NCBI GenBank assembly: GCA_050696355.1
Contig: JBOGVD010000102.1
Span: forward strand, 1,027-65,026
Length of the DNA stretch: 64,000 nucleotides
From: Actinomycetota bacterium
GTDB taxonomy: Bacteria > Actinomycetota > UBA4738 > HRBIN12
Direction of reading: 5' to 3'
The position numbers and the translations under genes are program-made. The notes under the pieces are model-generated. The model did not search any database. It had not been told where the DNA came from and was given only the letters and a program-made list of their open reading frames with translations. This document shows, one piece after another, positions 1 through 55,682 of this stretch (position 1 is its first letter; every line of letters starts with the position of its first letter).

Positions 1-109
1 GCAGCAGCAGGCTGAGCAGGCCAAGCGTCAGCGGCCTCCATGTGAAGGCACGACCACGCACTTCCTCAGTATCCCCCAGACCGCCTTCCTCCACGTACAG
101 AGCCCTCAT
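1..109 (-). CDS. hypothetical membrane protein, 5' end only (runs off window edge)
   Basis: Minus-strand ATG at 109 overlaps the TGA of the upstream SHOCT gene (ATGA at 106-109). Translation MRALYVEEGGLGDTEEVRGRAFTWRPLTLGLLSLLL.. ends in a hydrophobic helix at the edge. Too short to be in the ORF track. Confidence 0.3.
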   Translation of the reverse strand, partial: MRALYVEEGGLGDTEEVRGRAFTWRPLTLGLLSLLL

Positions 110-342: not shown

Positions 343-3333
343 CTACCGCTTTCCCGCCGATGCGTAACGACCCGGGTCCGCGCGGAAGGACTCGAGGCAT
401 GACGTCGAACAGAAGAAATACATCGTTCTGTCGAACTCCTCGCTCCCTGCCGCCGTCGCTGGATCGATGTCCATGCCGCAGACGGGGTCTCGAACCGTCG
501 CCATCTCTCGGTCCTCCTTCTGGTCGTCCGCCGTCACCCGAGCCTCGGGAACCTCGACGTGGACCGGCGTGGCTCGAGGAGTTCCGCTCGCTTCCGATAC
601 GGGTTCCGGGCGGAACCCCCGCAACCGATTCGCGTTCGTTACGACCGACAACGAGCTGAGCGCCATCGCAGCGGCCGCGATGATCGGACTGAGCCGGAGC
701 CCGATCAACGGGTACAGCGCGCCAGCAGCGATCGGGATCCCGACGACGTTGTAGCCGAAGGCGAAGAAGAGGTTCTGCCGGATGTTGCGCATCGCCGCCC
801 GGCTGAGATCGAAGGCCGTCACGACAGCGCGGAGATCCCCGGAGATCAGCGTGACGTCTGCAGCCTCGATCGCGACGTCGGTGCCGGTCCCGATCGCCAC
901 GCCCACGTCAGCCTGGGCCAGCGCCGGCGCGTCGTTGATCCCGTCTCCGACCATCGCGACGATCCGCCCCTCGCCTTGCAGCCGCTTGATCTCCCTAGCC
1001 TTGTCGTCCGGCAACACCTCGGCCAGCACTCGGCTGATGCCGACATCCCGCGCGATCGCTCGAGCCGTCTGCCTGTTGTCCCCCGTGATCATCGCGACCT
1101 CGAGACCCCTCTTCCGCAAGGCTGAGATCGCCGACGGCGCTTCGTCCCGCGACGTGTCGGCGACGGACACCACGCCGGCGGGCCGGCCGTCGATGCCAGC
1201 ATAGATCGCCGTCTTGCCCTGCTCCTCGAGCTCTGAGGCGACGGTCTCAAGCTCCGCGACGTCGATGCCGTCCGCCTCGAGGAACCGTCCCTTCCCGACC
1301 ACGACTTTGCGACCGTCTACCGTCGCCCGGATCCCGAGGCCGGTCACCGACTCGAAATCCTCCGTATCGGAGAGCCGCAAACGACGCTCCTCCGCTCCTC
1401 GGACGATGGCCTGGGCCAGCGGGTGTTCGGATAGCCGCTCCGCGGACGCGACGAGCCTGAGCACCTCCGCTTCGTCCAGAGCTGGCGCGGCGACCACATC
1501 GGTGAGGGCCGGTGAGCCCTTCGTGAGGGTGCCGGTCTTGTCGAGGACGACCGTGCCGATTCGATGCGCGGCCTCGAGCGCCTCGGCCGAGCGGATCAAC
1601 ACGCCGTGTTCCGCGCCCCGGCCGGTCCCGACCATGATCGAGAGCGGTGTCGCGAGGCCGAGGGCGCACGGGCACGCGATGATAAGCACTGAGACCGCAC
1701 TCACGAGCCCGTTCGTGACCGCCGGCAGCGGGCCGACGTCGAACCAGGCCACGAACGTCGCTATCGCCACCACGACGACGGCCGGGACGAAGTAGCTGGC
1801 GACGCGGTCGGCGAGGCGCTGGATCGGGGCCTTGGACGCCTGTGCCTCCCTGACGAGCCGCACGATCTGCGCCAGGACGGTGTCCGACCCGACGGCCGTC
1901 GCCCGGTACCGGAAGGCGCCGGTCTGGTTCATGGTCCCTCCCACGACTGGATCCCCGGGGCCCTTGTCCGCGGGGATCGACTCGCCGGTGATCATCGACT
2001 CGTCGAGCGTCGAGCGACCTTCCATGACCACTCCGTCGACCGGGACGCGCTCCCCCGGTCTCACGACGATCTCGTCCCCGGCCCGTACCTCCTCGATGGG
2101 CACCTCACGCTCAGAGCCCTCCCGGACCACTCGCGCCGTCCTGCGCCGCAGCCCGAGCAGCTGCCGGATCGCCTCCCCCGTCCCCGCCTTCGCCTTCGCC
2201 TCCAGAAGGCGGCCGAGCAGGATGAGCGTCAGGATCACGCCGACCGCCTCGAGGTAGACGTCGCGGACCGATGCGGGGAAGAGGTCTGGCGCGGCCGTCA
2301 CGAGCACGCTGTAGGCGAAGGCCGCCGTGGTGCCCAGCGTGATCAGTGCGTTCATCTCGGCCGTGCGATGGACGAGGGTCCGCCATCCGATGGCGTGGAT
2401 CGGCCACCCCGTGTACACGAAGACGGGCGCGATCAAGGCGAGCTGCACCCACGGCTCCATCAGGAAGGCCGGAACGTCGAGCCCGAAGAACTCCTCGGCC
2501 ATCACCGCACCCACGACGGGAACGGACAGAACGGCGCCCACCAGGACGCGGCGCGAGAGGTCGGCGACCTCGCGACGCCGTTCGGCCTCTTCCTCACCTT
2601 CCGCCGCGGCGCCGGACCCTGGCTGGTCCGTGGCCTCGACCCGGTAGCCGGCAGATGCGACGGCGCGGCGCATCTCGTCGACGGAAACCGCCGAGGGATC
2701 GAACCGGACGCTCGCTTGCTGCTCCGCCACATCAGTCGTCACGCCCGCCACACCGGGGAGCGGCTCGAGCACCGACTCGATCGTCCGCATGCACGTGGCG
2801 CAGACAACACTTCGGTCCCGCAGCCTGAACGCGACTTCACCCGACCTGTCCCCCAACGCTTCGATCGCGATCGCTCTCGGGACGTCGTGCGGGTGATGGT
2901 CGGTTGCGGCGAACGAGGACAGATCCCCGGCTCGATCTGCGAGATCGCCCTCGCCGTCGGTGTCCTCCACGACCAACGTGCCGTGCACCATGTTCATCCC
3001 GCACGCGAACGGGAACTCGCCGCTACGCTCGGGCATCAGCTCAACGGCCGTGCTCGTGAAGGCTGGCAACGTCCGGCGGATCCGGAAGTCGGGGAAGACG
3101 ACCTCAGAGGTGCACTCCCCTCTCTCTTGCCGGTCGAAGACCAGCCGGAGCGGTATTCCTCGCCGCGCGTGGACGGTCGCCGGGGAGTAGCCACCGCGGA
3201 CGGTCACCTCGATCTCCTGATCGCCGCCACGCACCACCGCATCAGCCGACGCTCTCGGCCCGACGAAGAACCAGACCAGACCGGCGCTCACCAGCAACCC
3301 ACCGGCCGTCACCACGATCTCGGCAAACGTCAC
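343..3333 (-). CDS. copA: copper-translocating P1B-type ATPase with N-terminal cupredoxin-like domain, HMA domain and C-terminal YHS/TRASH domain
   Basis: 996-aa ORF with DKTGTLT phosphorylation site, CPC transport motif ([11 protein letters not shown]) and GDGINDAP hinge. N-terminal TM plus cupredoxin-like segment (..[17 protein letters not shown]), HMA-like CxxC ([14 protein letters not shown]), C-terminal [24 protein letters not shown]. Confidence 0.93.
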
Positions 3334-3377
3334 GGCCTGAGTACCTCTGCCTTCGGCATTGTCTGACCCCTCCTACC

Positions 3378-5453
3378 TCAGCGATCCGGCGGTGGCTCGA
3401 TCTCGATCGGGGCATCGAACGCGAAGTAGCGGTGGTCCATGAAGTGGCCCTGCGCGCGCATCTCCGCCCTGCGAACGAGACCTTCGTCGTCCACCCAAAG
3501 TTTGAACCAGATCGGAACCGAGCCTGTTCCGGCGAACGACACGACCTCGGTATTCAGGCCATCGACCCGAGCGGACCCGACGATGTGCGGTCCCACCGCC
3601 GGAAGGTAGTAGTCCCAGATGAACTTCGGCACCTCGGGGACGGGACCTCCCGTCTGCTCCTCCCACGGTGCTTCCGGGGAGGAGCGGAAGTACCGGGTAT
3701 CGTCGATCTCGATCACGTCGACGGTCACCTCCCCATCGCGGATCCCCTGCGACGTGTACCGGTCGGGGGCGACGAAGGCGTAGACCGAGCGAGTCCCACC
3801 TCGGCCGCTCGAGAGCACCTCGATCTGGCGGTAGCTCCCGAGCTGATGCATCCGCTGTTGGACCCGCTCGAGGAGCCTCGAACCGTCTGGGGCCGGGAGC
3901 GACGGGAGCTCGAATGACGCGGTCCCGCCGATCCCTGTCCCGACATCGACGGCCAGACGCTCGCCCCCCTCGAGCTCGAGCTCCGCACGTCGGCACGTCG
4001 TCCCGCACTCTTCCATCGAGGTCGTGCGGCCTCCCAGCTCGATCGTCGCGGGGACGCGCGCCGCGGCTTCCTCCCCCTCGAGCGGGAGCAGGTACACGTA
4101 CACGTCGTTCGTGCCCGGCCGCGCGGGGCGGATCGTCAGTCCGACCAGGACCTCCCCCGCATCGCCCCCGAGCGTGAGATCCCCCTCCCTCGGCAGCGCG
4201 ACCGCTGCAGCTGAAGGCTCCTCCCCTTCCTCGGCTTCCGAGGCCCGGCCAGGCGGTAGCGGGAACGCGGCGAGCAGTGCGGCGACACCGATCACCAGCA
4301 GGGCGACTCCAGCCTCGAACCGCGGGCTCCCGAGGACCCGGCGCCACATCAGGATCGAGAGCGGGACCATGCACAGCACGATCAGGACCTTCAACGAGAG
4401 CAGGAGCCCGTAGGTGGTCTGGACCAGGTCGGCAGGACGACTCAGCTCCTGGATCCCTCTGAGGCTCCCGGTCGCGAGCGTCGCGACGAAGGCCGGGATC
4501 GCCACCGCGGAAAACCCATTGAGCAGCGCTCGGCCCTGGGGTCCCCTCCAGCCGTCCGGTGGCCGGAGCGTCGCGAGGGCGAGGATCCCACCGGTCCAGA
4601 GACCCGCGACGACCAGGTGCATGGCGTCGACCGGCACGCCGAACGCGACCGCCGCCGCGTGACCCGAGGCGGAGAGCGCCACGATCGCGACGAGCAGGAA
4701 GAGGCCGTGACCGCGCCGGATCCACCACCCGACGATCGAAAGAGCCTCCGCGAGCAGCCGGATCGTCCTGGCAGCACCGGATGGTCCGGTCGTCAGGTAC
4801 CCGACGACAGCTCCGGATCGGATCGAGCCCGCCGCGGAGACCGCCTCACCGACCACCACGATCAGCCCGCTCGCGAAGGCCGCGCCGAGCGCCCAGCCGA
4901 CCCGTGGGCGCACCCACTCGAGCCCCGCGGATCTGGCCAGCCGGAGCAGGAGCAACATGCCGATCGCGAGGAGCAGCGACACGTACTCCAAGGCCCGGAA
5001 GATCGCGACGATCAGGTCCGACCTCTGTGGGTCGGTTCCGATCGCGCCCTCGGATCCCGGCCCAGGGTCGACGCCGACGCCGAAACGGAACGAACCGCGC
5101 AGCGTGTGTCCGTCGAGCGTGCTGACCGTGACCCATTCGACCTCGTAGACACCCAGGGCGTTCGTCGTGAGCGGGATCCGGATCTCACGCTCCCCCGTCG
5201 AATCCCCCTCGAAGCGGCGACCGCTCGGGTCGATCACGGTGGCACGCGAGAGCGAGACGTTCAGTGGTTCGGAGAACGCGAGCACCACGACGCCTGGCGC
5301 CGAGCCGAGCTCCTGGCTGGGCTCGGGCTGGGACGACACGATCGCGGCGTGTGCGTGCGCGGTCGCGGGAAGCCCGACGATTGCGGCCGCGACGAAGAGG
5401 GCGACGAAGGACGCCCTCCAGCCGTTCCGATTCGGGGTCGGAGGCCCGCTCAT
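3378..5453 (-). CDS. CopC-CopD fusion copper-resistance membrane protein (YcnJ-like) with extra C-terminal soluble domains
   Basis: ATG 5453 lies inside the 935-aa track ORF, 12 nt after the ccdA stop. Signal/anchor ..FVALFVAAAIVGLPATAHAHA, then a CopC-like sandwich (HAAIVSSQPEP..VYEVEWVTVSTLDGHTLRGSFRFGVG), then multiple CopD-type TM helices, then about 250 aa of soluble C-terminus. Confidence 0.8.
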   Translation of the reverse strand: MSGPPTPNRNGWRASFVALFVAAAIVGLPATAHAHAAIVSSQPEPSQELGSAPGVVVLAFSEPLNVSLSRATVIDPSGRRFEGDSTGEREIRIPLTTNALGVYEVEWVTVSTLDGHTLRGSFRFGVGVDPGPGSEGAIGTDPQRSDLIVAIFRALEYVSLLLAIGMLLLLRLARSAGLEWVRPRVGWALGAAFASGLIVVVGEAVSAAGSIRSGAVVGYLTTGPSGAARTIRLLAEALSIVGWWIRRGHGLFLLVAIVALSASGHAAAVAFGVPVDAMHLVVAGLWTGGILALATLRPPDGWRGPQGRALLNGFSAVAIPAFVATLATGSLRGIQELSRPADLVQTTYGLLLSLKVLIVLCMVPLSILMWRRVLGSPRFEAGVALLVIGVAALLAAFPLPPGRASEAEEGEEPSAAAVALPREGDLTLGGDAGEVLVGLTIRPARPGTNDVYVYLLPLEGEEAAARVPATIELGGRTTSMEECGTTCRRAELELEGGERLAVDVGTGIGGTASFELPSLPAPDGSRLLERVQQRMHQLGSYRQIEVLSSGRGGTRSVYAFVAPDRYTSQGIRDGEVTVDVIEIDDTRYFRSSPEAPWEEQTGGPVPEVPKFIWDYYLPAVGPHIVGSARVDGLNTEVVSFAGTGSVPIWFKLWVDDEGLVRRAEMRAQGHFMDHRYFAFDAPIEIEPPPDR

Positions 5454-5464
5454 CAGCCGGACGG

Positions 5465-6185
5465 TCAGATCGGCGGCCATCGGTTCACCAAGAACCACCC
5501 GATCAAGGGGATGAAGAGTCGGGTCCATTGCCCCGTGATCATCAGGATCCCCATCAGAACCAGGAGCGCGCCGCCGACGCGCTCGATCGCGCGCCCGTGA
5601 CGGCGCAGCCAACCGAACGCCTTGCCGGCGCGCGTGTACCCGACCGCGAGAAGCACGAACGGGACTCCCAATCCAAGCGAGTACGCGAACAGGAGCCCTG
5701 CGCCGGTCCATGCGGTCTGCGTCGCCGCCGCGGCCGAGAGGATGCCCGCGAGCACGGGGCCGATGCATGGGGTCCACCCGAGCGCGAACGCCATCCCCAA
5801 TGGGACGGCCCCGAGAGGCCCAGCCCTGATCCGGCGGAGGTCGATCCGCGCCTCCCGGTACAGGAAGGGGATGCGCAACAGGCCGAGCGCGACCAGGCCC
5901 ATCACGATGACGAAGACGCCGGGCGATCCCCATGAACACCGGCCGGTTCCGGAGGATCACGCCGCCCAGCGTCGAAGCACCCGCTCCGAGGATCGTGAAG
6001 ACAGTGGCGAAGCCGAGCACGAAGAGGAGCGCGGAGGAGATCACCCGGTTGCGCACCGCCACGGCTGCTGACGGCTCTCGTGCCACGCCGCTCACGTACG
6101 AGAGGTATCCAGGCATCAGGGGCAGGCAGCACGGCGACGTGAACGACACGGCGCCGGCAACGAACGCGAGCGCTATGGCCCCCAC
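5465..6185 (-). pseudogene. ccdA: cytochrome c biogenesis / thiol-reductant transporter CcdA (DsbD family), apparent frameshift
   Basis: The N-terminal half (GTG 6185; MGAIALAFVAGAVSFTSPCCLPLMPGYLSYVSG..) and the C-terminal half (ORF 5465..5905; ..GMAFALGWTPCIGPVLAGIL..) are in different frames. The junction is at the GGG run 5921-5923. Deleting one base restores ..RNRPVFMGIAGVFVIVMGLVALG... Confidence 0.7.
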
Positions 6186-12217: not shown

Positions 12218-14281
12218 ATGACTCAGGGGTCCGCGAATCCTAGGACGACGCAGAGCGGATGGCAAAAGCTAGTTCTTCTGAGTTGTCTGATGCTCTTCTT
12301 GGAGCTGGCACTGATCCGCTTGGTCGCGGCACACAACGTCTATGTGCGCTATTTCACGAACTTCGTTCTCCTCGCCAGCTTCCTCGGTATCGGGCTCGGG
12401 TTCTTGCGCGCGAACTCGAAGCGAGATTCCTTCTTGTCATTGCCCTTCTTCCTGCTCCTCGCCATCGCCTTCGTGATCCTCTTCCCCGTGGGGCAGCGTA
12501 GTGGTGCCACCCACGGCTCGTTCGGCACACCATCCCTCCCGGAATGGCTCTCCCTGCCGCTGATATTCATCCTCGTATCGCTCGTCATGATGGCCTCGGC
12601 GGCTGGCGTCGCTCGCGCATTCGTCACCTTCCGTCCCCTGCATGCCTACCGTCTTGACATCATCGGAAGCATCCTTGGGATCATCCTCTTCACGATCGCC
12701 TCGATCCTCCGGCTGCCGCCGGTCGCTTGGGTACTCGCTGTCGCCCTTCTCTTCGGCGCGACGATAGGCCGGCGCGCAACACCAGGCCATTGGGTGGCCC
12801 TCGGGTTGGCAACCGCTCTGCTGGGCGTGCAGTGGCAGATCTCTGGCGATATCTGGTCTCCCTACTATCGAGTGGACGTCGAAGCACGCCAACGCGATGG
12901 AAGAACGCCGATCTTCGTGAACGGGACCCCACACCAATCCATCTGGACCTTGGAGGATCTGGTGAGAGAACAGCCCTTCTACGGCTACCCGTATCGTCAC
13001 ATCCCGGACAACCCGCTGGACGAGGTGCTCATCATCGGGGCCGGCTCCGGCAACGACGTCGCCCTTGCTCTCGCCCGCGGCGCGGGGCATGTCGACGCAG
13101 TCGAGATAGACCCGGTCCTCCTGGAGTTAGGTCGAGAGCGCCATCCGCACCGGCCATATCAAGACACGCGGGCCCGTGATCACGTGGAGGATGGCCGAGC
13201 GTTCCTCGAGCGGAGCGATCGGAAATATGACCTCATCCTCTTCGCTCTTCCGGACTCGCTCGTCCTCGTAGCAGGGCAGGGATCGCTCAGGCTCGAGAGC
13301 TTCTTGTTCACGAGAGAAGCCTTCGACGCCGTGCGGTCCCACCTCAAACCCGAAGGTGCATTCTCCATGTACAACTATTACCGCCCAGACGTTTTCGCTC
13401 GGTACGCGGCGACCCTTACAGACGTCTTCGATTCGCGCCCGTGCTTGGATGTGGGGGAACCGGGAGCAGGGGCCAACCGTCAAGCGGTGCTTACCATCTC
13501 TGCCCAACCGGATGTCTTACGGTGCTCGACGTTCTGGGTTCCTCCTCGGCTTGTCCCACGCCCAGCGACCGACAACTATCCCTTCCCTTACGCCCAGGGC
13601 TGGGGGTTATCGACCTTCTACATCGTTTCGCTGGCATCTCTGCTCCTAGGTTCTGCAGTCGCGATCCGACGCTTCGGACATGTGGAGGTGGCCGATGCGC
13701 GCCGATACCTGGATCTTTTCTTCATGGGCGCAGCGTTCCTCCTATTGGAAACGAAGAGCGTCGTGCAATTCGCTCTGCTCTTCGGGACAACGTGGCTCGT
13801 GAATTCACTCGTCTTCGCCGGCATCCTCGTGTCCGTCCTTCTCGCCATCGAGATCGCGGAGAGGGTGAAGCGGCTCCGTCCGGGGCTTCTCTACACGGCG
13901 CTGCTCGTCTCCCTCGGAGTGGCATGGGTGGTCAGACCCGAGCAACTTCTCGGTCTTTCGCCTGTGACCAGATTCGTAGCAGCCACGACCATCACATTTG
14001 CCCCGATCTTCTTCGGGAACCTCATCTTTGCAGAGCGGTTCAGGTCTGTAAGCTCCTCAACGACGGCCTTCGGCATCAACCTCTTAGGAGCGATCCTCGG
14101 CGGCGTCCTCGAGTACAGCAGCGTGGTCGTCGGATATAGGGGGCTGATCTTGGTTGTCGCCGCCGCGTACACCGCCGCCTATCTGCTACGCCCAGCCCAG
14201 GGCCCCGCTCACACGCCCAACGTTCTTGAGTGTGCTGGTGAACGAGACCCGACAAGACCAGGGCCGAGCCGCCATCCTTGA
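12218..14281 (+). CDS. polytopic membrane protein with spermidine-synthase-like (class I methyltransferase fold) domain
   Basis: 687 aa. N-terminal and C-terminal clusters of TM helices flank VLIIGAGSGNDVALALARGAGHVDAVEIDPVLLELGRE..YDLILFALPDS. Confidence 0.8.
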   Translation: MTQGSANPRTTQSGWQKLVLLSCLMLFLELALIRLVAAHNVYVRYFTNFVLLASFLGIGLGFLRANSKRDSFLSLPFFLLLAIAFVILFPVGQRSGATHGSFGTPSLPEWLSLPLIFILVSLVMMASAAGVARAFVTFRPLHAYRLDIIGSILGIILFTIASILRLPPVAWVLAVALLFGATIGRRATPGHWVALGLATALLGVQWQISGDIWSPYYRVDVEARQRDGRTPIFVNGTPHQSIWTLEDLVREQPFYGYPYRHIPDNPLDEVLIIGAGSGNDVALALARGAGHVDAVEIDPVLLELGRERHPHRPYQDTRARDHVEDGRAFLERSDRKYDLILFALPDSLVLVAGQGSLRLESFLFTREAFDAVRSHLKPEGAFSMYNYYRPDVFARYAATLTDVFDSRPCLDVGEPGAGANRQAVLTISAQPDVLRCSTFWVPPRLVPRPATDNYPFPYAQGWGLSTFYIVSLASLLLGSAVAIRRFGHVEVADARRYLDLFFMGAAFLLLETKSVVQFALLFGTTWLVNSLVFAGILVSVLLAIEIAERVKRLRPGLLYTALLVSLGVAWVVRPEQLLGLSPVTRFVAATTITFAPIFFGNLIFAERFRSVSSSTTAFGINLLGAILGGVLEYSSVVVGYRGLILVVAAAYTAAYLLRPAQGPAHTPNVLECAGERDPTRPGPSRHP

Positions 14282-15234
14282 CGGATTCCACCACGGGGAG
14301 CGGCGCCTACTAGATCGTGGTCGCTGTCCTTGACAACGAGGATCCTCCGCCCTTTCTCACGAGGAAGGACCCGGACGTGCGACGGCACGGTCGTCGCGAG
14401 ACGTGGGTCCATTGACGAGTGCAAGAAGGATCCTTGGATTCATCGAGGAGCCGTCGTAGCCCGTCCGTCTCTCGGCGTCCATGACTGCCAGCAGCCTGAG
14501 CGGAACCCTCTCGAGCACCCATCCTCCGCAGGGTGAGAGGAACGCCGAGGGTCGGGACACCCCGGAACGTTGCGTTGGCCGGTGGTGCCTCCGTTGGCAC
14601 CCATCGGCGGGTCGACGGAATCGTTCGGTGGTCGTGGCGTCCGTTCTGGATGGGACCGACTCGGGTCCACCGACTACTCGGGTCCACCGAAATGAGGGGG
14701 AGTCGATGGATGCGACGCGCTCTGCTCCAAGACGGACGTGGTTGTCGTGGCATCACGTGGCGCACCGGAGCGCTGCTCGGCGTCGCGGCCGCCGTTGTCA
14801 TGGGCATGTTCGCCATGCTCGCCTCGGCGACGTACCACGACACCGGGTTCTTCACGCCACTGCATCACATCGCTTCTGCGCTGATAGAGCCGAACGCCAT
14901 GATGCGGTCGATGGAGGCCGGGATGGCCGGCGACACCTTCACCATATCGGTGGGACCGGCCCTGCTCGGCTTGACGCTGCACCTCGCCACCGGCGCCTTC
15001 TGGGGAGCGATCTTCGAGCTGCCGGCCCGGGCACGTCGATGGTTCGAGCGCCATCTGCTCGACTGCGAGGACTGCTGGCGGGAGGTCCTGCCTCGGTCGC
15101 TTCGGTATGCGGGTCGCGGAGGACGCGCGCGAGCCTGTCCCGGTCGGGCTCCGGGACAGGGTGCGGGCCGCGGTCCTCCTCTCCTCCGACTGAGCCCCCA
15201 GCCGCGCCGGCTCCGCTCGGGAGCGTCGAGCCCC

Positions 15235-15423
15235 TCAACCGCCGTGCGCATGCGGCTGGGCGAGCGACTGACGGAGCTCCTGTCGGAGGCAGCGGTAACA
15301 GATGACGTTCGAGCAGTCGGCGCTCTCGCAGAAGGCGCAGAGGTCGATCAGAGAGCCGCAGCGCGTACAGCGGTGGAGACGCTCGCGGCTCGCCCCTAGA
15401 ACGGCCGGCGACTGATCGGCCAT
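15235..15423 (-). CDS. Cys-rich mini-protein (CxxC..CAFCE..DC..ICYR..PHAHGG), partner of rhodanese-CBS, copy 1
   Basis: ORF 15235..15426. ATG 15423 overlaps the TGA of the upstream gene (TGATG). Paralogue at 37179..37349 with the same Cys spacing and the same PHAHGG C-terminus. Confidence 0.6.
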   Translation of the reverse strand: MADQSPAVLGASRERLHRCTRCGSLIDLCAFCESADCSNVICYRCLRQELRQSLAQPHAHGG

Positions 15424-16142
15424 CACTCCTCCTCGGCCTCGTGACGGTGCCCGTGGAGCTCGAGCGCGGCTCTGACGGCGTCCTCTTTCCTCAGCAGTCC
15501 GATCAATCGCCCATCCGACGAGGTGATCGGGGAGCTTGCCAGGTCATGGTCCATCATGAACCCGGCCAGCTCCTCGATCGGAACGTTGGGCCGGAAGGTG
15601 CTCGGTCCCGGTCGCATGACATGTTCCGCGGGCTCGTCGGCGCTCTCATCCAGCTGTGCCGCGCGCAGGAGCCCGAGGACGATCCGTTCCTCGTTCACCA
15701 CGACACAGGTGTCCCAGCCGGCGGCGTGGACGCGACTGCGGACCTCGCCGATCCGCTCGTCCAGGCGACAGGTGGGCACGTCGGCCCGGGCGACATCCCT
15801 CGCGCTCGGTCTCTCCGCCTTCGTGCCCTCGGTCGGTAGGCCGGCCGCGAGCCAGTCGGCTATCCCATCGACGTAGTCGTACACCTCGGAGAACCCGAGG
15901 CTCTCGAGCCGCCACGCGGCTCGCGGGCTGAGGTCTCAGGCCGAGTCCCAGCAATAGACGAGGATCGGCCGCGATGAGTCGAGCCGTGCCCTCGCCTCGG
16001 TCTCGATCTTCCGGAGCGGCAGGTTGATCGCCCCGGGGAGGTGATCCTCCTCGAATTCCTCCGGGCCAAGCACGTCGACGACCTGAACCCCTCGGTCGAT
16101 CAGCGCTCGGACCTGCGTGCGTTCGTGCACCTCGTGTGCCAT
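15423..16142 (-). CDS. rhodanese-CBS pair fusion protein with in-frame TGA (candidate selenocysteine at codon 69), copy 1
   Basis: ATG 16142 preceded by GGAGG. Track ORFs 15936..16244 and 15423..15884 are in the same frame, separated only by TGA 15936-15938. The reading is ..PILVYCWDSA-TGA-DLSPRAAWRLESLGFSEVYDYVDGIADWLAAGLPTEG (rhodanese completed), followed by two CBS motifs. Confidence 0.55.
15905..15923 (-). promoter_or_regulatory. hairpin 12 nt downstream of the in-frame TGA (candidate bacterial SECIS), copy 1
   Basis: CGAGCCGC-GUG-GCGGCUCG: 8-bp stem with GU in the apical loop. Identical in the paralogue, while flanking codons differ synonymously. Confidence 0.4.
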
Positions 16143-16445
16143 CGACTGTCCTCCGGGTAGTCGACCTACGAGCAGACTACGCCCACATGGAACGGACGCA
16201 CCAGTCGCCGCGCGATTCCCATCGGACCCGACCAGACGCCGCATGGGGAGTGGCGTCGTCCAACTTCAGTCTCAGGTGGCGGGTACTTGACGAGCCTGGC
16301 GCGCCCGGCACGAGACCGGCTCGCGCGGGTCGTTCCCGGTTGTCGCATGGATCCGAACGAGCGCTGCTGCTCTGCAGACTCTGAACCCTTCCTGGATCGC
16401 GCCCGTACTCCTATAAGAATCTGAAGGTGAACGAAGGGAGATGTC

Positions 16446-28432: not shown

Positions 28433-31400
28433 ATGAGAGAGTTCGACCGGGCGCAGTTCGGGCCGAACGTCTGGCTCCTCGACGAGCTCTATCGGGACTA
28501 TCTTGCCGACCCGGCATCCGTGAGCGAACCGTGGCGGGAGTTCTTCGAAGACTACCGTCCACGCGGTGACGACAAGCGGGCCGGCGCCGGGCCCGTGCCG
28601 GACCTGCCCGCGCCCGCTCCGGACGCGACGCCGGCGCAACCGGCGCCGGTCGAGGTCGCGGATCCGCAGCCCGCTCCGGGTGGGGAGCCGGAGAAGGGCC
28701 TCCCGCTCGTGGGGGCCGCCGGGGTGATCGCTCGGCGGATGGAGGAGAGTCTCACCGTCCCGACCGCCACCTCGGTTCGAAACGTCCCCGCTCGTCTGCT
28801 GGAGCTCAATCGCACACTTATCAACCGCCACCTCGAGCGCGTGCAGGGTGGACGGGTTTCCTTCACGCATCTGATCGGTTATGCGATCGTGAAGGCGCTG
28901 GTTGCCTTCCCGGGCATGAACCGCTCATTCGCGCTGGTCGACGGGAAGCCGACGGTCATCGAGCACGCACATGTCAACCTCGGGCTCGCCGTCGACGTGA
29001 AGCGCGACGACGGGACGCGGATCCTGCTCGTTCCGAAGATCACGGCCGCCGACGACCTCGAGTTCACGCGGTTCCACGACGCGTACGAGGATCTGATCCG
29101 CAAGGTCCGCACGAACGAGCTGACCCCCGACGACTTCGCGGGAACCACCGTCACGATCACGAACCCTGGCACGATCGGCACCGTCCTGTCCGTGCCCCGG
29201 CTCATGGCCGGGCAGGCCGCGATCGTCGGGATCGGTGCGATCGCCTATCCACCCGAATACCAGGGTGCGGACCAGGACACGCTGACCGAGCTGGGACTGT
29301 CCAAGGTCCTGACGCTCACCAGCACCTACGACCATCGCGTGATCCAGGGTGCCGAGAGCGGCGAGTTCCTCGGTCGGGTGCACGAGCTGCTGATCGGCGA
29401 GCACAACTTCTACGGCGATGTCTTCAGGTCGCTGGAGCTCCCATACCGGCCGATCCACTGGACGGTCGACGAGCGGCCCGCCGAGGACTCCTTGCCGGCT
29501 CGGGAGAAGCAGGCTCGCGTGCTCCAGCTGATCAACAACTACCGGGTGCGCGGGCACCTCATCGCCGACCTGGATCCGCTCGCCACCGTCCCACCGGCCA
29601 CCCACCCGGAACTCGACCCGGCGAACCTGGGCTTCTCCATCTGGGACCTGGACCGCCGATTCGTCACGGGAGGGATCGCGGGAACGCGCGAAGCCACGCT
29701 GAACGAGATCTGGGGGGTGCTCCGCGATGCGTACTGCGGGACCCTCGGCGTCGAGTACATGCACATCCAAGATCCCGACCAGAAGGAGTGGATCCAGGAA
29801 CAGCTGGAACGCGTCGGCGAAGGGGTCACTCCCGACGACCGCCGCCAGATCCTGTTGAAGCTGAGCGAGGCGGAGGCCATCGAACGATTCCTCCATCAGC
29901 GCTACGTGGGACACAAGCGCTTCTCGCTGGAGGGTGCCGAGAGCCTGATCCCGATCCTTGACGCGATCCTCGACCGGGCCGCCGATGCGGAGCTCTCGGA
30001 AACCGTCATGGGCATGGCGCACAGAGGCCGCCTCAACGTGCTGGCGAACATCATCGGGAAGAGCTACCGACAGATCTTCCGCGAGTTCGAGGGCGAGCTG
30101 GACCCGCTCTCCGTCGAAGGATCGGGCGACGTGATCTACCACCTCGGCGCCTCGGGGAAGCACGTGTCCCGGGCCGGGAACGGCATCATCGTGTCGGTCG
30201 CTTCCAACCCCAGCCATCTGGAGTCGGAGGACCCGGTGGTGGAGGGGATGGCCCGGGCGAAGCAGGATCTCATCGACTCGCCTGACGGTGCGCGGGTGTT
30301 GCCCGTGTTGATCCACGGGGAGGCCGCCTTCGCCGGGCAGGGGGTGGTCGCGGAGACGCTGAACCTCTCACAGCTCCCCGGCTATCAGACCGGGGGCACG
30401 ATCCACGTGATCATCAACAATCAGCTCGGGTTCACGACGACACGCGAGCACGGACGCTCGAGTGTGTACGCGAGCGACGTCGCGAAGATGGTGCAGGCGC
30501 CCATCTTCCACGTGAACGGCGACGACCCCGAGACCTGCGTTCGAGCGGCTCGCCTGGCGTTCGCGTTCCGGCAGGAGTTCCGCAAGGACGTGATCGTCGA
30601 CATGTGGTGCTATCGACGCTGGGGCCACAACGAGGCCGACGAACCGTCGTTCACGCAGCCTCTCATGTACCGCCGCATCGGAGAGCTCCGCTCCGTCCGC
30701 AAACGCTACATGGAAGCCCTGGTGAACCGAGGCGATCTCACGACGGAAGACGCCGAGCAGGCGCTCAGGACGTACTCCGACCGTCTTCGCCAGGTGTTCG
30801 AGGAGACCAGGGGGCAGCACGCGGACGTGCCCGCGCTCGAGCGGCGCGAGCCGGAGCCCGTGCCCGAGGCACCCATGCAGACCGGGGTGCTCCGCGCGCG
30901 TCTCGAGGAGGTGGCGGATGCGCTCACCCGAACACCCGATGGATTCGAGATCCACCCGAAGCTTGCACGGATGCTGGAACAGCGCAGGGCGGCGCTCGAC
31001 GAGGATCGGATCGACTGGGCCTTCGCGGAAGCCATGGCATTCGGCACCCTGCTCCTGGATGGGATCACGATCCGGCTCACCGGCCAGGACACCCGGCGCG
31101 GGACGTTCAGCCAGCGCCACGCGGTCCTCGTCGACCAGCAGACGGGCCGGGAACATCTTCCGTTCCAGCACCTGGCCGACCGGCAGGGGAAGGCGTTCAT
31201 CTATGACAGCTTGCTGTCGGAGTTCGCGGCGGTTGGCTTCGAGTACGGGTATTCGGTGGCGGATCCCGGCGCGCTGGTGTTGTGGGAGGCGCAGTTCGGC
31301 GACTTCGTGAACGGCGCACAGGTGATCATCGATCAGTACGTCGTCGCAGCCGAGGAGAAGTGGGGCCAGGAGAGCGGACTGGTGCTCTTGCTCCCCCATG

Positions 31401-32038
31401 GACACGAGGGTCAGGGGCCGGAGCATTCGAGCGCTCGGCTCGAGCGGTTCCTCGACCTCGCCGCGAGGGACAACATCGAGGTGACCGTGCCCTCGACGCC
31501 GGCACAGTACTTCCATCTCCTCCGCCGGCAGGCCTTGCGGAGCGTCAGGAAGCCGCTCGTCGTGATGACGCCGAAGTCGCTCCTTCGGTTGGCCGCTGCC
31601 GCCAGCAACACGCAGGAGCTGGGATCGGGTCACTTCCAACCGGTTCTCCCGGATCCCTCACCGCCGAAGGCAGCGTCTCGCGTCTTGCTCTGCCAGGGGA
31701 AGGTGTTCTTCGAGATCACGGGACAGCGCGCGAAGAGCGGCCGTGAGGATGTCGCCGTGATCCGCGTGGAGCAGTGCTACCCGCTCCCGGTCGATGCCCT
31801 ACGGGAAGAGATCGGACGCTTCCCCGGTGCCGAATTGATCTGGGCACAGGAGGAACCGGAGAACATGGGAGCAGGCCGATACATGCTGCGCGAGCTCCGC
31901 GAGCGTTTGGGTATGGACGCACGGCTGGTGTCGCGGCCGGAGAGCCCGAGTCCCGCAACGGGGAGCCTCACCCTGCACCGGGAGGAACAGTCAGACCTGC
32001 TCGATCGCATGCTCAGCGGCCGACCGCCGGGTAACTGA
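28433..32038 (+). CDS. kgd: multifunctional 2-oxoglutarate metabolism enzyme (Kgd/OdhA type: E2-like acyltransferase domain fused to E1o)
   Basis: 1201 aa, ATG after GGGAGGAAGC. N-terminal FGPNVWLLDELYRDYL, acyltransferase core ..TYDHRVIQGAESGEFL.., E1o/ThDP region ..GMAHRGRLNVLANI.., HGEAAFAGQGVV, YRRWGHNEADEPSFTQP. Confidence 0.95.
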   Translation: MREFDRAQFGPNVWLLDELYRDYLADPASVSEPWREFFEDYRPRGDDKRAGAGPVPDLPAPAPDATPAQPAPVEVADPQPAPGGEPEKGLPLVGAAGVIARRMEESLTVPTATSVRNVPARLLELNRTLINRHLERVQGGRVSFTHLIGYAIVKALVAFPGMNRSFALVDGKPTVIEHAHVNLGLAVDVKRDDGTRILLVPKITAADDLEFTRFHDAYEDLIRKVRTNELTPDDFAGTTVTITNPGTIGTVLSVPRLMAGQAAIVGIGAIAYPPEYQGADQDTLTELGLSKVLTLTSTYDHRVIQGAESGEFLGRVHELLIGEHNFYGDVFRSLELPYRPIHWTVDERPAEDSLPAREKQARVLQLINNYRVRGHLIADLDPLATVPPATHPELDPANLGFSIWDLDRRFVTGGIAGTREATLNEIWGVLRDAYCGTLGVEYMHIQDPDQKEWIQEQLERVGEGVTPDDRRQILLKLSEAEAIERFLHQRYVGHKRFSLEGAESLIPILDAILDRAADAELSETVMGMAHRGRLNVLANIIGKSYRQIFREFEGELDPLSVEGSGDVIYHLGASGKHVSRAGNGIIVSVASNPSHLESEDPVVEGMARAKQDLIDSPDGARVLPVLIHGEAAFAGQGVVAETLNLSQLPGYQTGGTIHVIINNQLGFTTTREHGRSSVYASDVAKMVQAPIFHVNGDDPETCVRAARLAFAFRQEFRKDVIVDMWCYRRWGHNEADEPSFTQPLMYRRIGELRSVRKRYMEALVNRGDLTTEDAEQALRTYSDRLRQVFEETRGQHADVPALERREPEPVPEAPMQTGVLRARLEEVADALTRTPDGFEIHPKLARMLEQRRAALDEDRIDWAFAEAMAFGTLLLDGITIRLTGQDTRRGTFSQRHAVLVDQQTGREHLPFQHLADRQGKAFIYDSLLSEFAAVGFEYGYSVADPGALVLWEAQFGDFVNGAQVIIDQYVVAAEEKWGQESGLVLLLPHGHEGQGPEHSSARLERFLDLAARDNIEVTVPSTPAQYFHLLRRQALRSVRKPLVVMTPKSLLRLAAAASNTQELGSGHFQPVLPDPSPPKAASRVLLCQGKVFFEITGQRAKSGREDVAVIRVEQCYPLPVDALREEIGRFPGAELIWAQEEPENMGAGRYMLRELRERLGMDARLVSRPESPSPATGSLTLHREEQSDLLDRMLSGRPPGN

Positions 32039-32501: not shown

Positions 32502-32873
32502 ATGAGGATCGGAGACATCTATCGCCGCGGGGTGTTCACCGTCCAAGCCTCCGACACACTCGCTCATTGCGCCCGGCGCCTCGAGGTCGCGGCGGTGGGA
32601 GCACTCGGCGTGGTAGAGGGTTCCGACATCGTGGGCATCATCTCGGAGCGCGACCTGGTCCTGGCCCTGTCTCGAAGGGATGATCCCAGGGGCGCGCTCG
32701 TCCGCGAGTTCATGTCGGTTGATCTGTTGACCGCCGACGTGGACGAAGCGGCGCGCGAAGTGGCGCACCGGATGCTTGATGCTGGGATCCGGCACCTGCC
32801 GGTGGCGGAGGAAGGAAACCTCGTGGGGATGGTCTCCATGCGGGACCTGCTCCATCTGGAGACGTGGGGCTAG
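32502..32873 (+). CDS. CBS domain pair protein
   Basis: 123 aa, ATG after GGGGAGGATGAG. Two CBS repeats (..VVEGSDIVGIISERDLV.. and ..VAEEGNLVGMVSMRDLL..). Confidence 0.8.
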   Translation: MRIGDIYRRGVFTVQASDTLAHCARRLEVAAVGALGVVEGSDIVGIISERDLVLALSRRDDPRGALVREFMSVDLLTADVDEAAREVAHRMLDAGIRHLPVAEEGNLVGMVSMRDLLHLETWG

Positions 32874-32877
32874 GCCC

Positions 32878-34026
32878 GTGGACCTCCTGTCCCGGAAGGA
32901 TCTCCAGCGTCTCGCATCCCGCCGACCTGGGAGGTGCGTGTCCCTCTTCGTGCCGACGCATCGGTCCGGCCCGGGCGTCAAGCAGGACCGGATCCGGTGG
33001 AGGAAGCTCCTGGCTGAGACGGAGAAGACGCTTCGCGGCGAAGACGCGCGGAGAACGGAGGCCGAGGATCTCCTTCGACCAGCTCGGGAGCTCCTGGATG
33101 ACGCGCTGTTCTGGCAGTACCAGAGCGACGGCCTGGCCATGTTCATCGGTGCCGGATGGTCGCGCTTCTTCCGCGTCGCCATCCCCCTGCCGGAGCTCGG
33201 GACCGTCGGGCGGCGGTTCGTCGTCGGCCCGCTTCTGCCGCTGCTCGCGGACGGCGGACGCTACTTCGTCCTGGCCTTGAGCCAGAACGAGATCCGGTTA
33301 CTCGAGGGCACGCGCTTCGGCCTGGAGGAGGTCGAGCTCCAAGATCCGCCGCGGAGCCTTCGCGCGATGCTCGCGCGCGAGGAACAGAGGCCGGAAGTGC
33401 ATGGCTTCCTGGCGGACCGTGGCGGCGTGGGCTCTCGGGTCGTGTTCTATGGTCAAGGTGGCGGAGCCGACGTGGGGCGGAAGGAGCAGATCGTCCGCTA
33501 CTTCCGGAAGGTCGATCGCGTGCTCCGCAGCGTCATCAAGGACGATCGCGCTCCGGTCGTCCTGGCAGGCGTCGAGTACCTGCTCCCGCTCTACCGCAGG
33601 GCCAGCGAGCTCCCCCACCTGCTACGGCGGGGGGTCAGGGGTAGCCCGGAAGAGCTATCACCGCACGAGCTGCACGGCCGCGCGTGGAGGCTCGCGGAGC
33701 CCGTCTTCCGACGCCGGGAACGGGAGGCAGCCGCCCGCTATCGACGTCTCCTCGGCACTGGTCTGACCGTGAACGACCCAGAGGCGGCCCTGGAAGCATC
33801 GCGGGCCTCACGCATCGAGGCGCTTTTCCTATCGTCCTCCACGACAACCTGGGAGACCCACGCTTCGAGTCCGGTTGTCCGGCTCGAGGAGGCTGCGCCG
33901 GAGCCGACCTGGCAGGTGCTGGATCTGCTCGCGATCACGACTCTCCGCCGGGGTGGGGATGTGTACGCAGTACCCGATGATCGAGTGCCGGATCGTACCG
34001 GCGTTGCAGGCGTCCTCCGCTTCTAG
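32878..34026 (+). CDS. eRF1-fold 'bacterial archaeo-eukaryotic release factor'-like (baeRF-type) protein, family assignment from memory
   Basis: GTG 32878, 4 nt after the CBS stop. VDLLSRKDLQRLASRRPGRCVSLFVPTHRSGPGVKQDRIRWRKLL.., ..GRYFVLALSQNEIRLLEGTRF.., ..VVFYGQGGGADVGRKEQIVRYFRKVD... Confidence 0.5.
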   Translation: MDLLSRKDLQRLASRRPGRCVSLFVPTHRSGPGVKQDRIRWRKLLAETEKTLRGEDARRTEAEDLLRPARELLDDALFWQYQSDGLAMFIGAGWSRFFRVAIPLPELGTVGRRFVVGPLLPLLADGGRYFVLALSQNEIRLLEGTRFGLEEVELQDPPRSLRAMLAREEQRPEVHGFLADRGGVGSRVVFYGQGGGADVGRKEQIVRYFRKVDRVLRSVIKDDRAPVVLAGVEYLLPLYRRASELPHLLRRGVRGSPEELSPHELHGRAWRLAEPVFRRREREAAARYRRLLGTGLTVNDPEAALEASRASRIEALFLSSSTTTWETHASSPVVRLEEAAPEPTWQVLDLLAITTLRRGGDVYAVPDDRVPDRTGVAGVLRF

Positions 34027-36458: not shown

Positions 36459-37157
36459 ATGCCGCACGAGGTTCACCAGCGGGACGAGGTTCGTGCCCTG
36501 ATCGATCGGGGTGCACAGCTGGTCGACGTGCTGGGCGCGGAGGAGTTCGAGGAAGACCACCTTCCTGGAGCGATCAACCTACCCCTCCGGAAGATCGAGA
36601 CCGAGGCCAGACGGCAGCTCGCTCCGACCCGGCCGATCGTCGTCTACTGCTGGGACTCCGCCTGAGACCTCAGTCCACGAGCCGCGTGGCGGCTCGAGAG
36701 CCTGGGGTACTCGCAGGTCTACGACTACGTCGACGGGAAACTCGACTGGCTCGCGGCCGGTCTTCCGATCGAGGGCACCAGCGCTGAGCGCCCGCGCGCC
36801 GGCGACGTGGCCCGCGGGGACGTACCGACGTGCCGTCTGGACGAGCCGATCGGCGATGTCCGCGATCGCGTCCGTTCGGCCGGATGGGCTGCGTGCGTGG
36901 TCGTGAACGAGGAGCGGGTGGTCCTTGGCTTGCTTCGCGGACCCGAGCTTGACAAGGGACGCGATGAGCCCGCGGAGCAGGTCATGCGGCCCGGCCCCAG
37001 CACGTTCCGCCCGCATGTGCCGATAGCGGAGATGGCGCATTTCATGGTGGACCACAACCTCTCGACCTCACCCATCACCTCGTCGGACGGTCGCTTGATC
37101 GGGCTTCTTCATCGGGAGGACGCGGTCGGCCTCGCACACGGACACGAACCGCGATGA
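36459..37157 (+). CDS. rhodanese-CBS pair fusion protein with in-frame TGA (candidate selenocysteine at codon 69), copy 2
   Basis: ATG 36459 after GGAGGGG. Track ORFs 36459..36665 and 36807..37157 share a frame. TGA at 36663-36665 sits inside ..PIVVYCWDSA-TGA-DLSPRAAWRLESLGYSQVYDYVDGKLDWLAAGLPIEG... The 47 in-frame codons between the TGA and the next ATG/GTG/TTG (36807) are conserved with copy 1. Confidence 0.55.
36678..36696 (+). promoter_or_regulatory. hairpin 12 nt downstream of the in-frame TGA (candidate bacterial SECIS), copy 2
   Basis: CGAGCCGC-GTG-GCGGCTCG, identical to copy 1 (15905-15923, minus strand). Confidence 0.4.
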
Positions 37158-37178: not shown

Positions 37179-37349
37179 GTGACGTCCATGGATCGAGGGG
37201 CCGTGGTTCTCACGTGCACGGGGTGCGGCGTCATCGTCGAGGTCTGCGCCTTCTGCGAGCGAGAGGACTGCCGCGAGACGATCTGCTATCGATCCCTGCG
37301 GATACAGCTTGGGCAGTCCATGGCGCATCCGCACGCCCACGGGGGATGA
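37179..37349 (+). CDS. Cys-rich mini-protein (CxxC..CAFCE..DC..ICYR..PHAHGG), copy 2
   Basis: Not in the ORF track (under 60 aa). GTG 37179 or ATG 37188 after GAGGAGGGA. ..MDRGAVVLTCTGCGVIVEVCAFCEREDCRETICYRSLRIQLGQSMAHPHAHGG*, with TGA at 37347-37349. Confidence 0.55.
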   Translation: MTSMDRGAVVLTCTGCGVIVEVCAFCEREDCRETICYRSLRIQLGQSMAHPHAHGG

Positions 37350-37563: not shown

Positions 37564-38223
37564 CTAATCGCGTGGCGCCGCCTCCTCACGTTCCACTCCG
37601 GGCACGATGAAGACCGGCGCTGGTGAGTGCCGAGCGAGGCGAGAGGCGACGCTGCCCAACAGCGCTTTCGAGGCACCTCGACCCCGGCTGCCGATCGCTA
37701 TGACGTGATGGCCCTCGCGTTCAACGTGTCGACCGAGAGCATCAGACGGTTCCCCCTGCAGCAGGACGGTCTCGGCCGACACGGGGGCAACCGACCTGGC
37801 CGCAACCTCGAGTCGGGCTCTTGCCCGCTTCTCCTCCTCCATCCCGGTGCGAGTCTTCAGGTACCCGTGTTCCATCACGGCCGCCAGCGTGAGCCGGCCA
37901 AGGCGTGGACCGATCAAGCGGACGATCCCGTCCAACGCGGCAAGCGACTCGGGCGACCCGTCGATCCCGACGAGCGCGTCCACCGGCCCGGCTTCAGACG
38001 TTCCAGCCGTCAGGACTTGACCCTGAACCCCTCGGTACTGGCGAAGCTCGGAGATGATCAACGGAACAACGAGTGGCCCCAGCACGGCACCGATCATGGT
38101 CCAGGCGAACCACGAGTGGCCCTGGCGAGCCATGAGGAAGCCGGCGAGGATCCCGATGCTTATCCAGCCCAGTCCTAGAGCCACGAACATCGCGGTTGTG
38201 TTCATGCGTCCATCTTGCGTCAA
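37564..38223 (-). CDS. membrane-anchored universal stress protein (UspA family)
   Basis: 219 aa. Two N-terminal TM helices, then ..ALVGIDGSPES.. and ..HHVIAIGSRGRGASKALLGSVASRLARHSPAPVFIV. Confidence 0.8.
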   Translation of the reverse strand: MTQDGRMNTTAMFVALGLGWISIGILAGFLMARQGHSWFAWTMIGAVLGPLVVPLIISELRQYRGVQGQVLTAGTSEAGPVDALVGIDGSPESLAALDGIVRLIGPRLGRLTLAAVMEHGYLKTRTGMEEEKRARARLEVAARSVAPVSAETVLLQGEPSDALGRHVEREGHHVIAIGSRGRGASKALLGSVASRLARHSPAPVFIVPGVEREEAAPRD

Positions 38224-55543: not shown

Positions 55544-55682
55544 TCCCCACAGCGAGGAGCCGGAGCTCGAAGATCCGTTCGCAGCTCTCGCACCGCCAGC
55601 CGGATGGGTCGGCGGGCCGCAGGTCCTGCTCGCCACAGAACGGGCAATAGAACGGGACGGCCCGCGGCGTCGGGACGCTCAT
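55533..55682 (-). CDS. 49-aa zinc-ribbon protein between sulfite reductase and cysH
   Basis: Not in the track (under 60 aa). ATG 55682 overlaps the sirA stop (ATGA). MSVPTPRAVPFYCPFCGEQDLRPADPSGWRCESCERIFELRLLAVGSAS*. A small ORF in this position is recalled from actinobacterial sulfate-assimilation operons. Confidence 0.5.
   Translation of the reverse strand: MSVPTPRAVPFYCPFCGEQDLRPADPSGWRCESCERIFELRLLAVGSAS

Follow-up and report, generated by a model that had tools for sequence, protein, structure and literature searches.

How is a TGA codon read when it interrupts an otherwise intact gene in the middle of an enzyme's active-site loop? This question is raised by a 64,000-nucleotide (nt) stretch of DNA from an Actinomycetota bacterium (contig JBOGVD010000102.1 of assembly GCA_050696355.1; this whole stretch is referred to as the window), which carries two genes, copy 1 and copy 2, for a rhodanese domain fused to a pair of CBS domains, each with one in-frame TGA. 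We conclude that both genes very probably encode a selenoprotein, UGA codon 69 being read as selenocysteine (Sec, U) by means of a conventional bacterial selenocysteine insertion sequence (SECIS) element within the open reading frame (ORF). The predicted protein, of ~26 kDa, begins with a single rhodanese domain and ends with a CBS pair.

A rhodanese-CBS gene interrupted by TGA

The frame of copy 1, which is divergently oriented from a gene for an ArsR-like helix-turn-helix/V4R regulator, runs on the minus strand from the ATG at 16142-16140 to a terminal TGA at 15425-15423. It contains exactly one internal stop, the TGA at 15938-15936 (codon 69), and the residues around it read ...SRPILVYCWDSA-TGA-DLSPRAAWRLESLGF... 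The original prediction for this locus had described the same frame, a GGAGG ribosome-binding site, the single internal TGA and this translation, all of which were confirmed by reading and translating the minus strand.

It had also been proposed that the stop falls inside the rhodanese fold, five residues after the loop Cys. When the product, with U replaced by C, was compared with Pfam, the Rhodanese model (PF00581) matched residues 9-99; the domain therefore spans the stop, which lies five residues past the loop Cys as proposed. The scores for the two copies were 57.1 and 55.3 bits against a cut-off of 22.2, and those for CBS (PF00571) in the C-terminal half were 45 and 51 bits against a cut-off of 24. 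In the source record, copy 1 is split into MGH2680688.1 (68 amino acids (aa), 'rhodanese-like') and MGH2680687.1 (153 aa, 'CBS domain-containing').

One alternative is that the UGA is read through without Sec, either by near-cognate, structure-stimulated insertion of Trp, Cys or Arg, or under a variant genetic code. The second possibility was examined in the window itself, which has 67.6% G+C and does not contain any tRNA gene. TGA is the terminator of 17 of its 25 well-supported long ORFs, and of both copies and both partner genes described below. Since TGA terminates most window genes, a reassigned code is excluded; genetic codes 4 and 25 were rejected, TGA being the ordinary and main stop codon. 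A scan of the window for further TGA-interrupted coding regions returned none with a crude filter that missed even the two known copies.

The TGA is present in two paralogues and in independent assemblies

Copy 2 was located by tblastn of the copy 1 product against the window. It lies at 36459-37157 on the plus strand, with a matching TGA codon and hairpin, and the label 'copy 1' used in the original prediction was thus apt. In the source record copy 2 is likewise divided in two, MGH2680708.1 being its N-terminal part. Judged by their divergence, with a synonymous substitution rate (dS) of about 1.1, the two copies are old paralogues. The ratio of nonsynonymous to synonymous rates (dN/dS) between them was 0.10 for codons 1-68 and 0.14 from codon 70 to the end. 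Hence, both halves have been kept as protein in one frame.

A stop within the frame is what one would by default take to mark a pseudogene; it could arise by nonsense mutation while a rhodanese-CBS gene decays, or by an error of assembly. However, the same codon is affected in both paralogues, diverged as they are, and in at least 120 metagenome loci (see below); dN/dS is 0.10-0.14 on either side of the TGA, and the frame stays intact up to its normal end. Two further NCBI assemblies (GCA_973786195.1 and GCA_050700195.1) contain copy 2, with the TGA, at 891/891 and 888/891 identical bases, and a shorter stretch of it, again with the TGA, recurs in a Logan assembly. Sequencing error as the source of the TGA was therefore rejected, and the recurrence in independent assemblies speaks equally against an error of assembly. 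The comparative data effectively refute the pseudogene explanation, to which we assign next to no probability.

Homologues carry Cys or TGA at the same column

A search of 5.8 billion proteins returned two classes of homologue: full-length rhodanese+CBS proteins of 225-240 aa with 50-65% identity, and many 'CBS only' proteins of 150-175 aa with 70-82% identity. The full-length homologues aligned as YC-x-D-x-x-C-D-[LM]-S-P-R-A-A, with Cys at the column of the TGA. Thus the orthologous rhodanese-CBS proteins give the C-x4-C/C-x4-U pair that had been expected on the model of related single-domain rhodaneses. Among the best 120 relatives, this column was occupied by Cys in 29 (full-length), by Trp in 12, and by Arg and Ser in one each, none being annotated as U; 77 were C-terminal fragments. 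The S-P-R-A-A motif was present in 41 of these 77, and 39 of the 41 start at a Met or Leu two codons past the column, while the other 36 fragments start further downstream.

The Trp forms are JGI calls (P0004, P0018, P0024-26, P0041, P0044, P0069, P0073, P0077, P0083 and P0114), of which only P0083 was checked. Its DNA (L173:198-968) has TGA at the column, and a second TGA near the 3' end was also translated. This Trp form is an artefact: the gene, which lies on a soil contig of high GC content, was called under a TGA=Trp code. For the Arg form (L172), the codon is AGA, one base from TGA; the hairpin described below is intact, a MerB gene lies upstream and the partner gene downstream, and the form looks like a recent change or an error.

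A TGA-specific DNA pattern, encoding C-x-D-x-x-TGA-D-[LMI]-x-[PA]-R-[AG]-A-W-R, was found in at least 120 metagenome contigs, most of them from soil. In nearly all of these loci that were long enough, the frame past the TGA stays open for ~150-175 codons. A scan of a genome collection gave 51 Cys-form loci, from Streptomyces, Acidimicrobiia, Solirubrobacterales, Acidobacteriota, Dehalococcoidia and others; it yielded Cys forms only, because its peptide pattern began with Cys. TGY at the column was seen in 46 genome loci, along with the 29 full-length database homologues, giving a Cys/Sec pair. As the TGA codon is shared by two old paralogues and at least 120 metagenome loci, its occurrence at one position is, by sequence comparison, far beyond chance. 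The original prediction had asked whether homologues end naturally at the stop or have neither Cys nor Sec there, and whether other genomes have TGA at the column. The homologues run on and carry Cys or, as we read the TGA, Sec, and TGA recurs in the metagenome loci just described.

The Cys-type orthologues share with the window protein its two-domain architecture, 40-65% identity and the invariant residues C64, D66, D70, S72, R74 and C125. They differ in having Cys in place of Sec, in lacking the conserved hairpin, with their synonymous sites free, and in that the small partner gene was not detected beside them at E <= 1e-3.

The same data bear on a second alternative, namely that translation stops at the UGA to give a 68-aa rhodanese fragment, that the C-terminal part is made by reinitiation or from an internal start, and that the two pieces assemble. 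Public annotations do call two coding sequences, and an ATG stands two codons past the TGA in 62% of TGA forms. However, this codon is CTC in both window copies. The earliest possible start after the TGA of copy 1 is the GTG at codon 87, yet residues 70-86 are highly conserved in frame. Because Met and Leu alternate at that column in the Cys forms too, the ATG is ordinary amino-acid variation. Moreover, we know of no precedent for a rhodanese fold cut within its active-site loop. A split gene would also leave unexplained the frozen synonymous sites of the hairpin, seen in TGA forms only and described in the following section. It is, in our judgment, a very unlikely arrangement.

A hairpin conserved in the TGA forms

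An 8-bp hairpin with a G/U-containing loop had been noted 12 nt past the TGA of copy 1. It is real: the stem runs from C15923 to G15905 and is capped by a GUG loop, which starts 20 nt past the UGA. With the T of the TGA taken as position 0, the eight pairs are C15-G33, G16-C32, R17-U31, G18-C30, C19-G29, C20-G28, G21-C27 and C22-G26.

The hairpin was compared column by column between 112 distinct TGA forms and 46 distinct Cys forms. Third codon positions within it, which had been left free in the TGA search pattern, were nearly or completely invariant in the TGA forms: the entropies were 0.07, 0, 0 and 0.26 bits at +20, +23, +29 and +32, against 1.60, 1.39, 1.32 and 1.12 bits in the Cys forms. 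Outside the stem, third positions of the TGA forms showed normal variation (1.43 bits at +14, 1.30 at +35, 1.65 at +38 and 1.56 at +44). Similarly, dS between the two paralogues fell from ~1.1 overall to 0.40 in codons 70-86. All eight pairs were formed in 100 TGA forms and seven in 13, while the Cys forms mostly made 5-7. The mean minimum free energy (MFE) of +12 to +36 was -14.6 kcal/mol for TGA forms and -10.7 kcal/mol for Cys forms (Mann-Whitney p = 6e-15). In an alignment of 110 TGA forms, 98.5% of cells were paired, and the 50 one-sided changes were all G-U wobbles.

The bacterial SECIS (bSECIS) model (PMC13188914) specifies an apical loop of 3-9 nt, an upper stem of 4-16 bp, a loop that starts with G followed by G or U, a distance of 16-37 nt from UGA to loop and an MFE of <= -7.5 kcal/mol. 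The hairpin has a loop of 3 nt, a stem of 8 bp, a G-U loop start, a distance of 20 nt and the mean MFE given above. The suggestion that it is a SECIS element has thus held on all counts of the model, and is joined by the freezing of synonymous sites in the TGA forms alone. Like the E. coli fdhF-type SECIS and the bSECIS consensus, it is a hairpin within the ORF right after the UGA, with G-U opening a small apical loop ~20 nt from the UGA and an MFE well under -7.5 kcal/mol. It differs from the fdhF type in its perfect, G+C-rich 8-bp stem and 3-nt loop, without a bulged U, and its binding by SelB is predicted.

These results also bear on read-through without Sec. In its favour, read-through can in general be promoted by a stable hairpin 3' of a stop, some family members have been called by JGI under TGA=Trp, and rare AGA (Arg) and Ser forms occur. 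Against this, the non-TGA orthologues have Cys at the column, making a classical Cys/Sec pair, and the hairpin fits the SelB-type bSECIS geometry with a GU loop. In the single Arg form the hairpin is still intact, and the AGA codon has the look of a recent change of one base. Read-through of this kind has, we estimate, only a slight chance of being the correct explanation.

The proposed reading of UGA as selenocysteine

We therefore return to the reading of codon 69 as Sec, the mechanism of which appears entirely conventional. By established bacterial Sec biology, SelB with Sec-tRNA(Sec) would bind the mRNA hairpin CGAGCCGC-GUG-GCGGCUCG while the ribosome sits at the UGA, and would deliver Sec in place of termination; the hairpin is at the same time the coding sequence for R-A-A-W-R-L-E. 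Sec would then occupy the place of the second Cys in the C-x4-C motif of the Cys-type orthologues, within the active-site loop (C64-W-D-S-A-U69-D70) that leads from the central beta-strand to the next helix. By analogy, the likeliest chemistry would be that of a Cys64/Sec69 redox pair, or a pair transferring sulfur or soft metals, that cycles via a selenenylsulfide, and the CBS pair would be a nucleotide-sensing regulatory module.

Several points weigh against this reading. In the 110-sequence alignment no stem pair was changed on both sides, the stem being near-invariant. As there is no compensatory covariation, structural support has to come from the synonymous invariance specific to TGA forms and from the wobble-only changes. 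Rfam, searched with the whole window at the gathering threshold and with the TGA region at E <= 10, returned chance-level matches alone and no SECIS family. Columns that the metagenome pattern itself prescribed, namely TGG at +24..26 and a number of first and second positions of codons, are uninformative. No selA, selB, selD or tRNA-Sec gene lies within the 64-kb window, no tRNA-Sec was found in 60 related loci scanned for tRNAs, and no sel genes were found in three TGA-form loci read by precomputed Pfam lists. Lastly, the chemistry of C-x4-U, the ligand of the CBS pair and the role of the partner are inferred. With regard to the sel genes, Actinobacteria are documented to have the Sec trait (PMC5029168, Table 2), so that nothing argues against Sec machinery in this genome.

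The active site in a structural model

An AlphaFold2 model was made of the Cys orthologue P0001, which is 65% identical to the window protein, from a 37-sequence alignment. The predicted local distance difference test score (pLDDT) was 95.6 and the predicted template modelling score (pTM) was 0.86. The first Cys, C63 (C64 of the window protein), is at the end of strand 59-62, and the second, C68 (U69 of the window protein), is in the loop just ahead of helix 70-80. Since the model puts C68 between this strand and this helix, Sec is predicted to lie in the active-site loop, where the original prediction had placed the stop. As compared with E. coli GlpE, the loop appears longer than that of the classical C-x5-[ST] rhodaneses and without their basic residues, which we take as a lead.

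In the family alignment (A2), the invariant residues include D66, D70, S72 and R74, as well as C125, a third Cys that belongs to the DVPTC motif with which the CBS pair begins. The C-x4-U site, together with the two invariant Asp residues and C125, would make an unusual rhodanese active site that is worth biochemical study.

A Foldseek search with the model found no solved structure covering both domains together. The rhodanese half superposes on BH2092 (3nhv, a single rhodanese domain), and the CBS half on the CBS pairs of AcuB (9s4y) and MgtE (5x9g), in each case at 1.5-2 A root-mean-square deviation, though sequence identity to the three is just 24-31%. The Foldseek matches of the CBS pair to AcuB, MgtE and CBSX were at E about 1e-9.

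Relation to known rhodanese selenoproteins

Predictions of rhodanese selenoproteins go back to the Sargasso Sea and Global Ocean Sampling analyses. A catalogue of May 2026 (PMC13188914) has five rhodanese forms: UxxS, UxxG, CxU (NF041203), a second UxxG, and TsoB with UxxxxU (NF045694). Neither a C-x4-U rhodanese form nor any mention of CBS is present in it. In NCBIfam release 20, no selenoprotein model reaches its cut-off with the window protein. The score for NF041203 (rhodanese_LYCAU) was 21.5 bits where 115 are needed, and the window protein has C-x4-U instead of CxU; that for NF045694 (TsoB) was 29.7 bits where 805 are needed, and here there is no DsbD domain and one Sec only. Forms 1, 2 and 4 (UxxS or UxxG, where we read Sec as being at the classical catalytic position) are not matched, as here the catalytic residue is Cys64 and Sec is at 69.

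All five catalogued forms resemble the window protein in having Sec in or next to the active-site loop, and all were predicted from Cys/Sec pairing and a bSECIS. TsoB further has two redox residues four positions apart, the spacing of C-x4-U, as compared by the catalogue table and NCBIfam scores. The window protein differs from the catalogued forms in that the classical catalytic position stays Cys, with Sec five residues downstream, and in that a C-terminal CBS pair is fused, without the DsbD part. It also differs in its source, soil Actinomycetota and relatives as against marine organisms or Deltaproteobacteria.

A literature search found no paper joining 'CBS domain', selenocysteine and rhodanese. 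The surmise that a rhodanese(Sec)-CBS fusion with its small partner had not been described agrees with the literature searched, in which we found no description of either. Rhodanese selenoproteins are an established kind, then, from which rhodanese(Sec)-CBS seems to be absent in the selenoprotein catalogues compared. What is new here is an uncatalogued, soil-abundant family, with an unusual position of Sec, a CBS fusion and a Cys-rich partner.

The family would add a common soil-borne selenoprotein, with two paralogues in one genome, to a catalogue dominated by examples from marine, gut and anaerobic organisms. It also shows that annotation goes wrong here in a systematic way: NCBI and JGI give these genes as a 66-68-aa 'rhodanese-like' stub and a 150-175-aa 'CBS domain' or 'MgtE' protein, and some JGI records of them are translated with the wrong genetic code. 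Hundreds of members should be recoverable with a profile and the frozen motif UGA-N12-CGRGCCGCGUGGCGGCUYG.

The partner gene

The coordinates of both copies, their TGA codons and hairpins, and the small gene next to each are listed in Table 1.

Table 1. Features of the two proposed rhodanese(Sec)-CBS loci in the window.
Feature	Position	Strand	Remarks
Copy 1, proposed rhodanese(Sec)-CBS selenoprotein gene	15423..16142	-	239 codons including Sec69
Ribosome-binding site GGAGG	16150..16154	-	7-nt spacer to copy 1 ATG at 16142; read directly
Proposed Sec codon 69, in-frame TGA	15936..15938	-	C64-x4-U69
SECIS-type hairpin of copy 1	15905..15923	-	8-bp stem CGAGCCGC / GCGGCUCG, GUG loop
Partner gene 1	15235..15423	-	62-aa 7-Cys protein ending ...PHAHGG; ATG overlaps copy 1 stop (TGATG)
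Copy 2, paralogous rhodanese(Sec)-CBS gene	36459..37157	+	77% aa identity to copy 1
Copy 2 in-frame TGA	36663..36665	+	codon 69, as in copy 1
Copy 2 SECIS-type hairpin	36678..36696	+	sequence identical to copy 1 hairpin
Partner gene 2	37179..37349	+	small Cys-rich protein ending ...PHAHGG; one motif Cys -> Ser

The overlap of start and stop codons at copy 1 suggests that partner gene 1 is translationally coupled to it. The partner motif is C-x2-C-G-x5-C-A-F-C-E-x3-C-x4-C-Y-R-C-L-R...Q-S...P-H-A-H-G-G, the last part being at the C-terminus. The gene was found in 24 of the 81 TGA-form loci with enough downstream DNA. Its 20 relatives (P0123-P0142) are all 'hypothetical' or unnamed, and none has a Pfam domain. 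They end in Gly-Gly in all cases but one, which ends in Asp-Gly; some distant homologues are without the terminal GG. The ~60-aa, 7-Cys partner is probably a substrate, chaperone or redox partner of rhodanese(Sec)-CBS. A ThiS/MoaD-type sulfur carrier was considered because of the C-terminal GG. This was set aside as speculation that fits ill with a Cys-rich protein of ~60 aa, no E1-like gene nearby and distant homologues that in part lack the GG.

For ~950 bp past partner gene 1 (window 14281-15235) there is no clean gene call. The ORF at 14533-15399 (+), which overlaps partner gene 1, has a weak zf-HC2 anti-sigma match alone; in two other loci (L177 and L178), the equivalent place holds a zf-HC2/extracytoplasmic function (ECF)-sigma pair.

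Gene neighbourhoods

A gene of the MerB family (alkylmercury lyase, PF03243) abuts the gene start in at least six loci of the TGA lineage (L052, L095, L104, L129, L144 and the AGA variant L172), ending ~200-240 nt upstream of the TGA (AGA in L172). The Cys-rich partner follows downstream in these loci wherever the DNA reaches far enough.

Neighbours that recur around both TGA and Cys forms are universal stress protein (Usp) genes, oxidative pentose-phosphate genes, transaldolase, ECF sigma/zf-HC2 anti-sigma pairs and cupredoxins. Copy 2 is flanked by an amino-acid permease and a Usp gene, and a transaldolase-phosphoglucose isomerase fusion adjoins. Usp genes were seen at 37564-38223 (-) in the window, at 3106-3747 in L174, at 6001-6906 in L179 and in the Streptomyces loci L005-L044. 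Phosphoribosyltransferase genes recur near the Streptomyces Cys forms, and NarL-type response regulators near other Cys-form loci (Acidobacteriota, Acidimicrobiia and others). Neighbourhoods with Usp, pentose-phosphate and response-regulator genes recall, to us, dormancy or redox-stress regulons.

Rhodanese(Sec)-CBS and its coupled 7-Cys, Gly-Gly partner, with the MerB-like lyase upstream in some loci, might point to a selenium-dependent relay of soil Actinomycetota that has so far gone unrecognised, one that might handle soft metals or organometals, or move sulfur or selenium to a small carrier protein. Such a relay would have its place in stress and dormancy metabolism, as the recurrence of Usp, pentose-phosphate and ECF-sigma genes nearby would suggest. 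We put this forward as a conjecture that is unlikely to hold.

Other genes of the window

Some further genes of the window may be noted. The transaldolase-phosphoglucose isomerase fusion mentioned above is of 878 aa (38301-40937, -). A 416-aa protein with a match to baeRF_family3 (E = 5e-40), which is bacterial archaeo-eukaryotic release-factor-like, is encoded at 32776-34026 (+), 2.4 kb upstream of copy 2. Its presence near a putatively recoded stop is curious, though it may have no link to copy 2. At 343-6185 (-) is a copper-resistance-like pair, consisting of a 996-aa P-type ATPase with N-terminal cupredoxin, HMA and C-terminal YHS domains, and a 935-aa protein with CopC and CopD domains. 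At 28433-32038 (+) is the gene for a 1201-aa fusion of 2-oxoglutarate dehydrogenase E1 and an E2 acyltransferase domain. An assimilatory sulfate-reduction cluster (54042-57391, -), with a sulfite reductase haemoprotein, a phosphoadenosine phosphosulfate (PAPS) reductase and a sirohaem synthase-like protein, shares the contig with both of the sulfur/selenium-chemistry genes.

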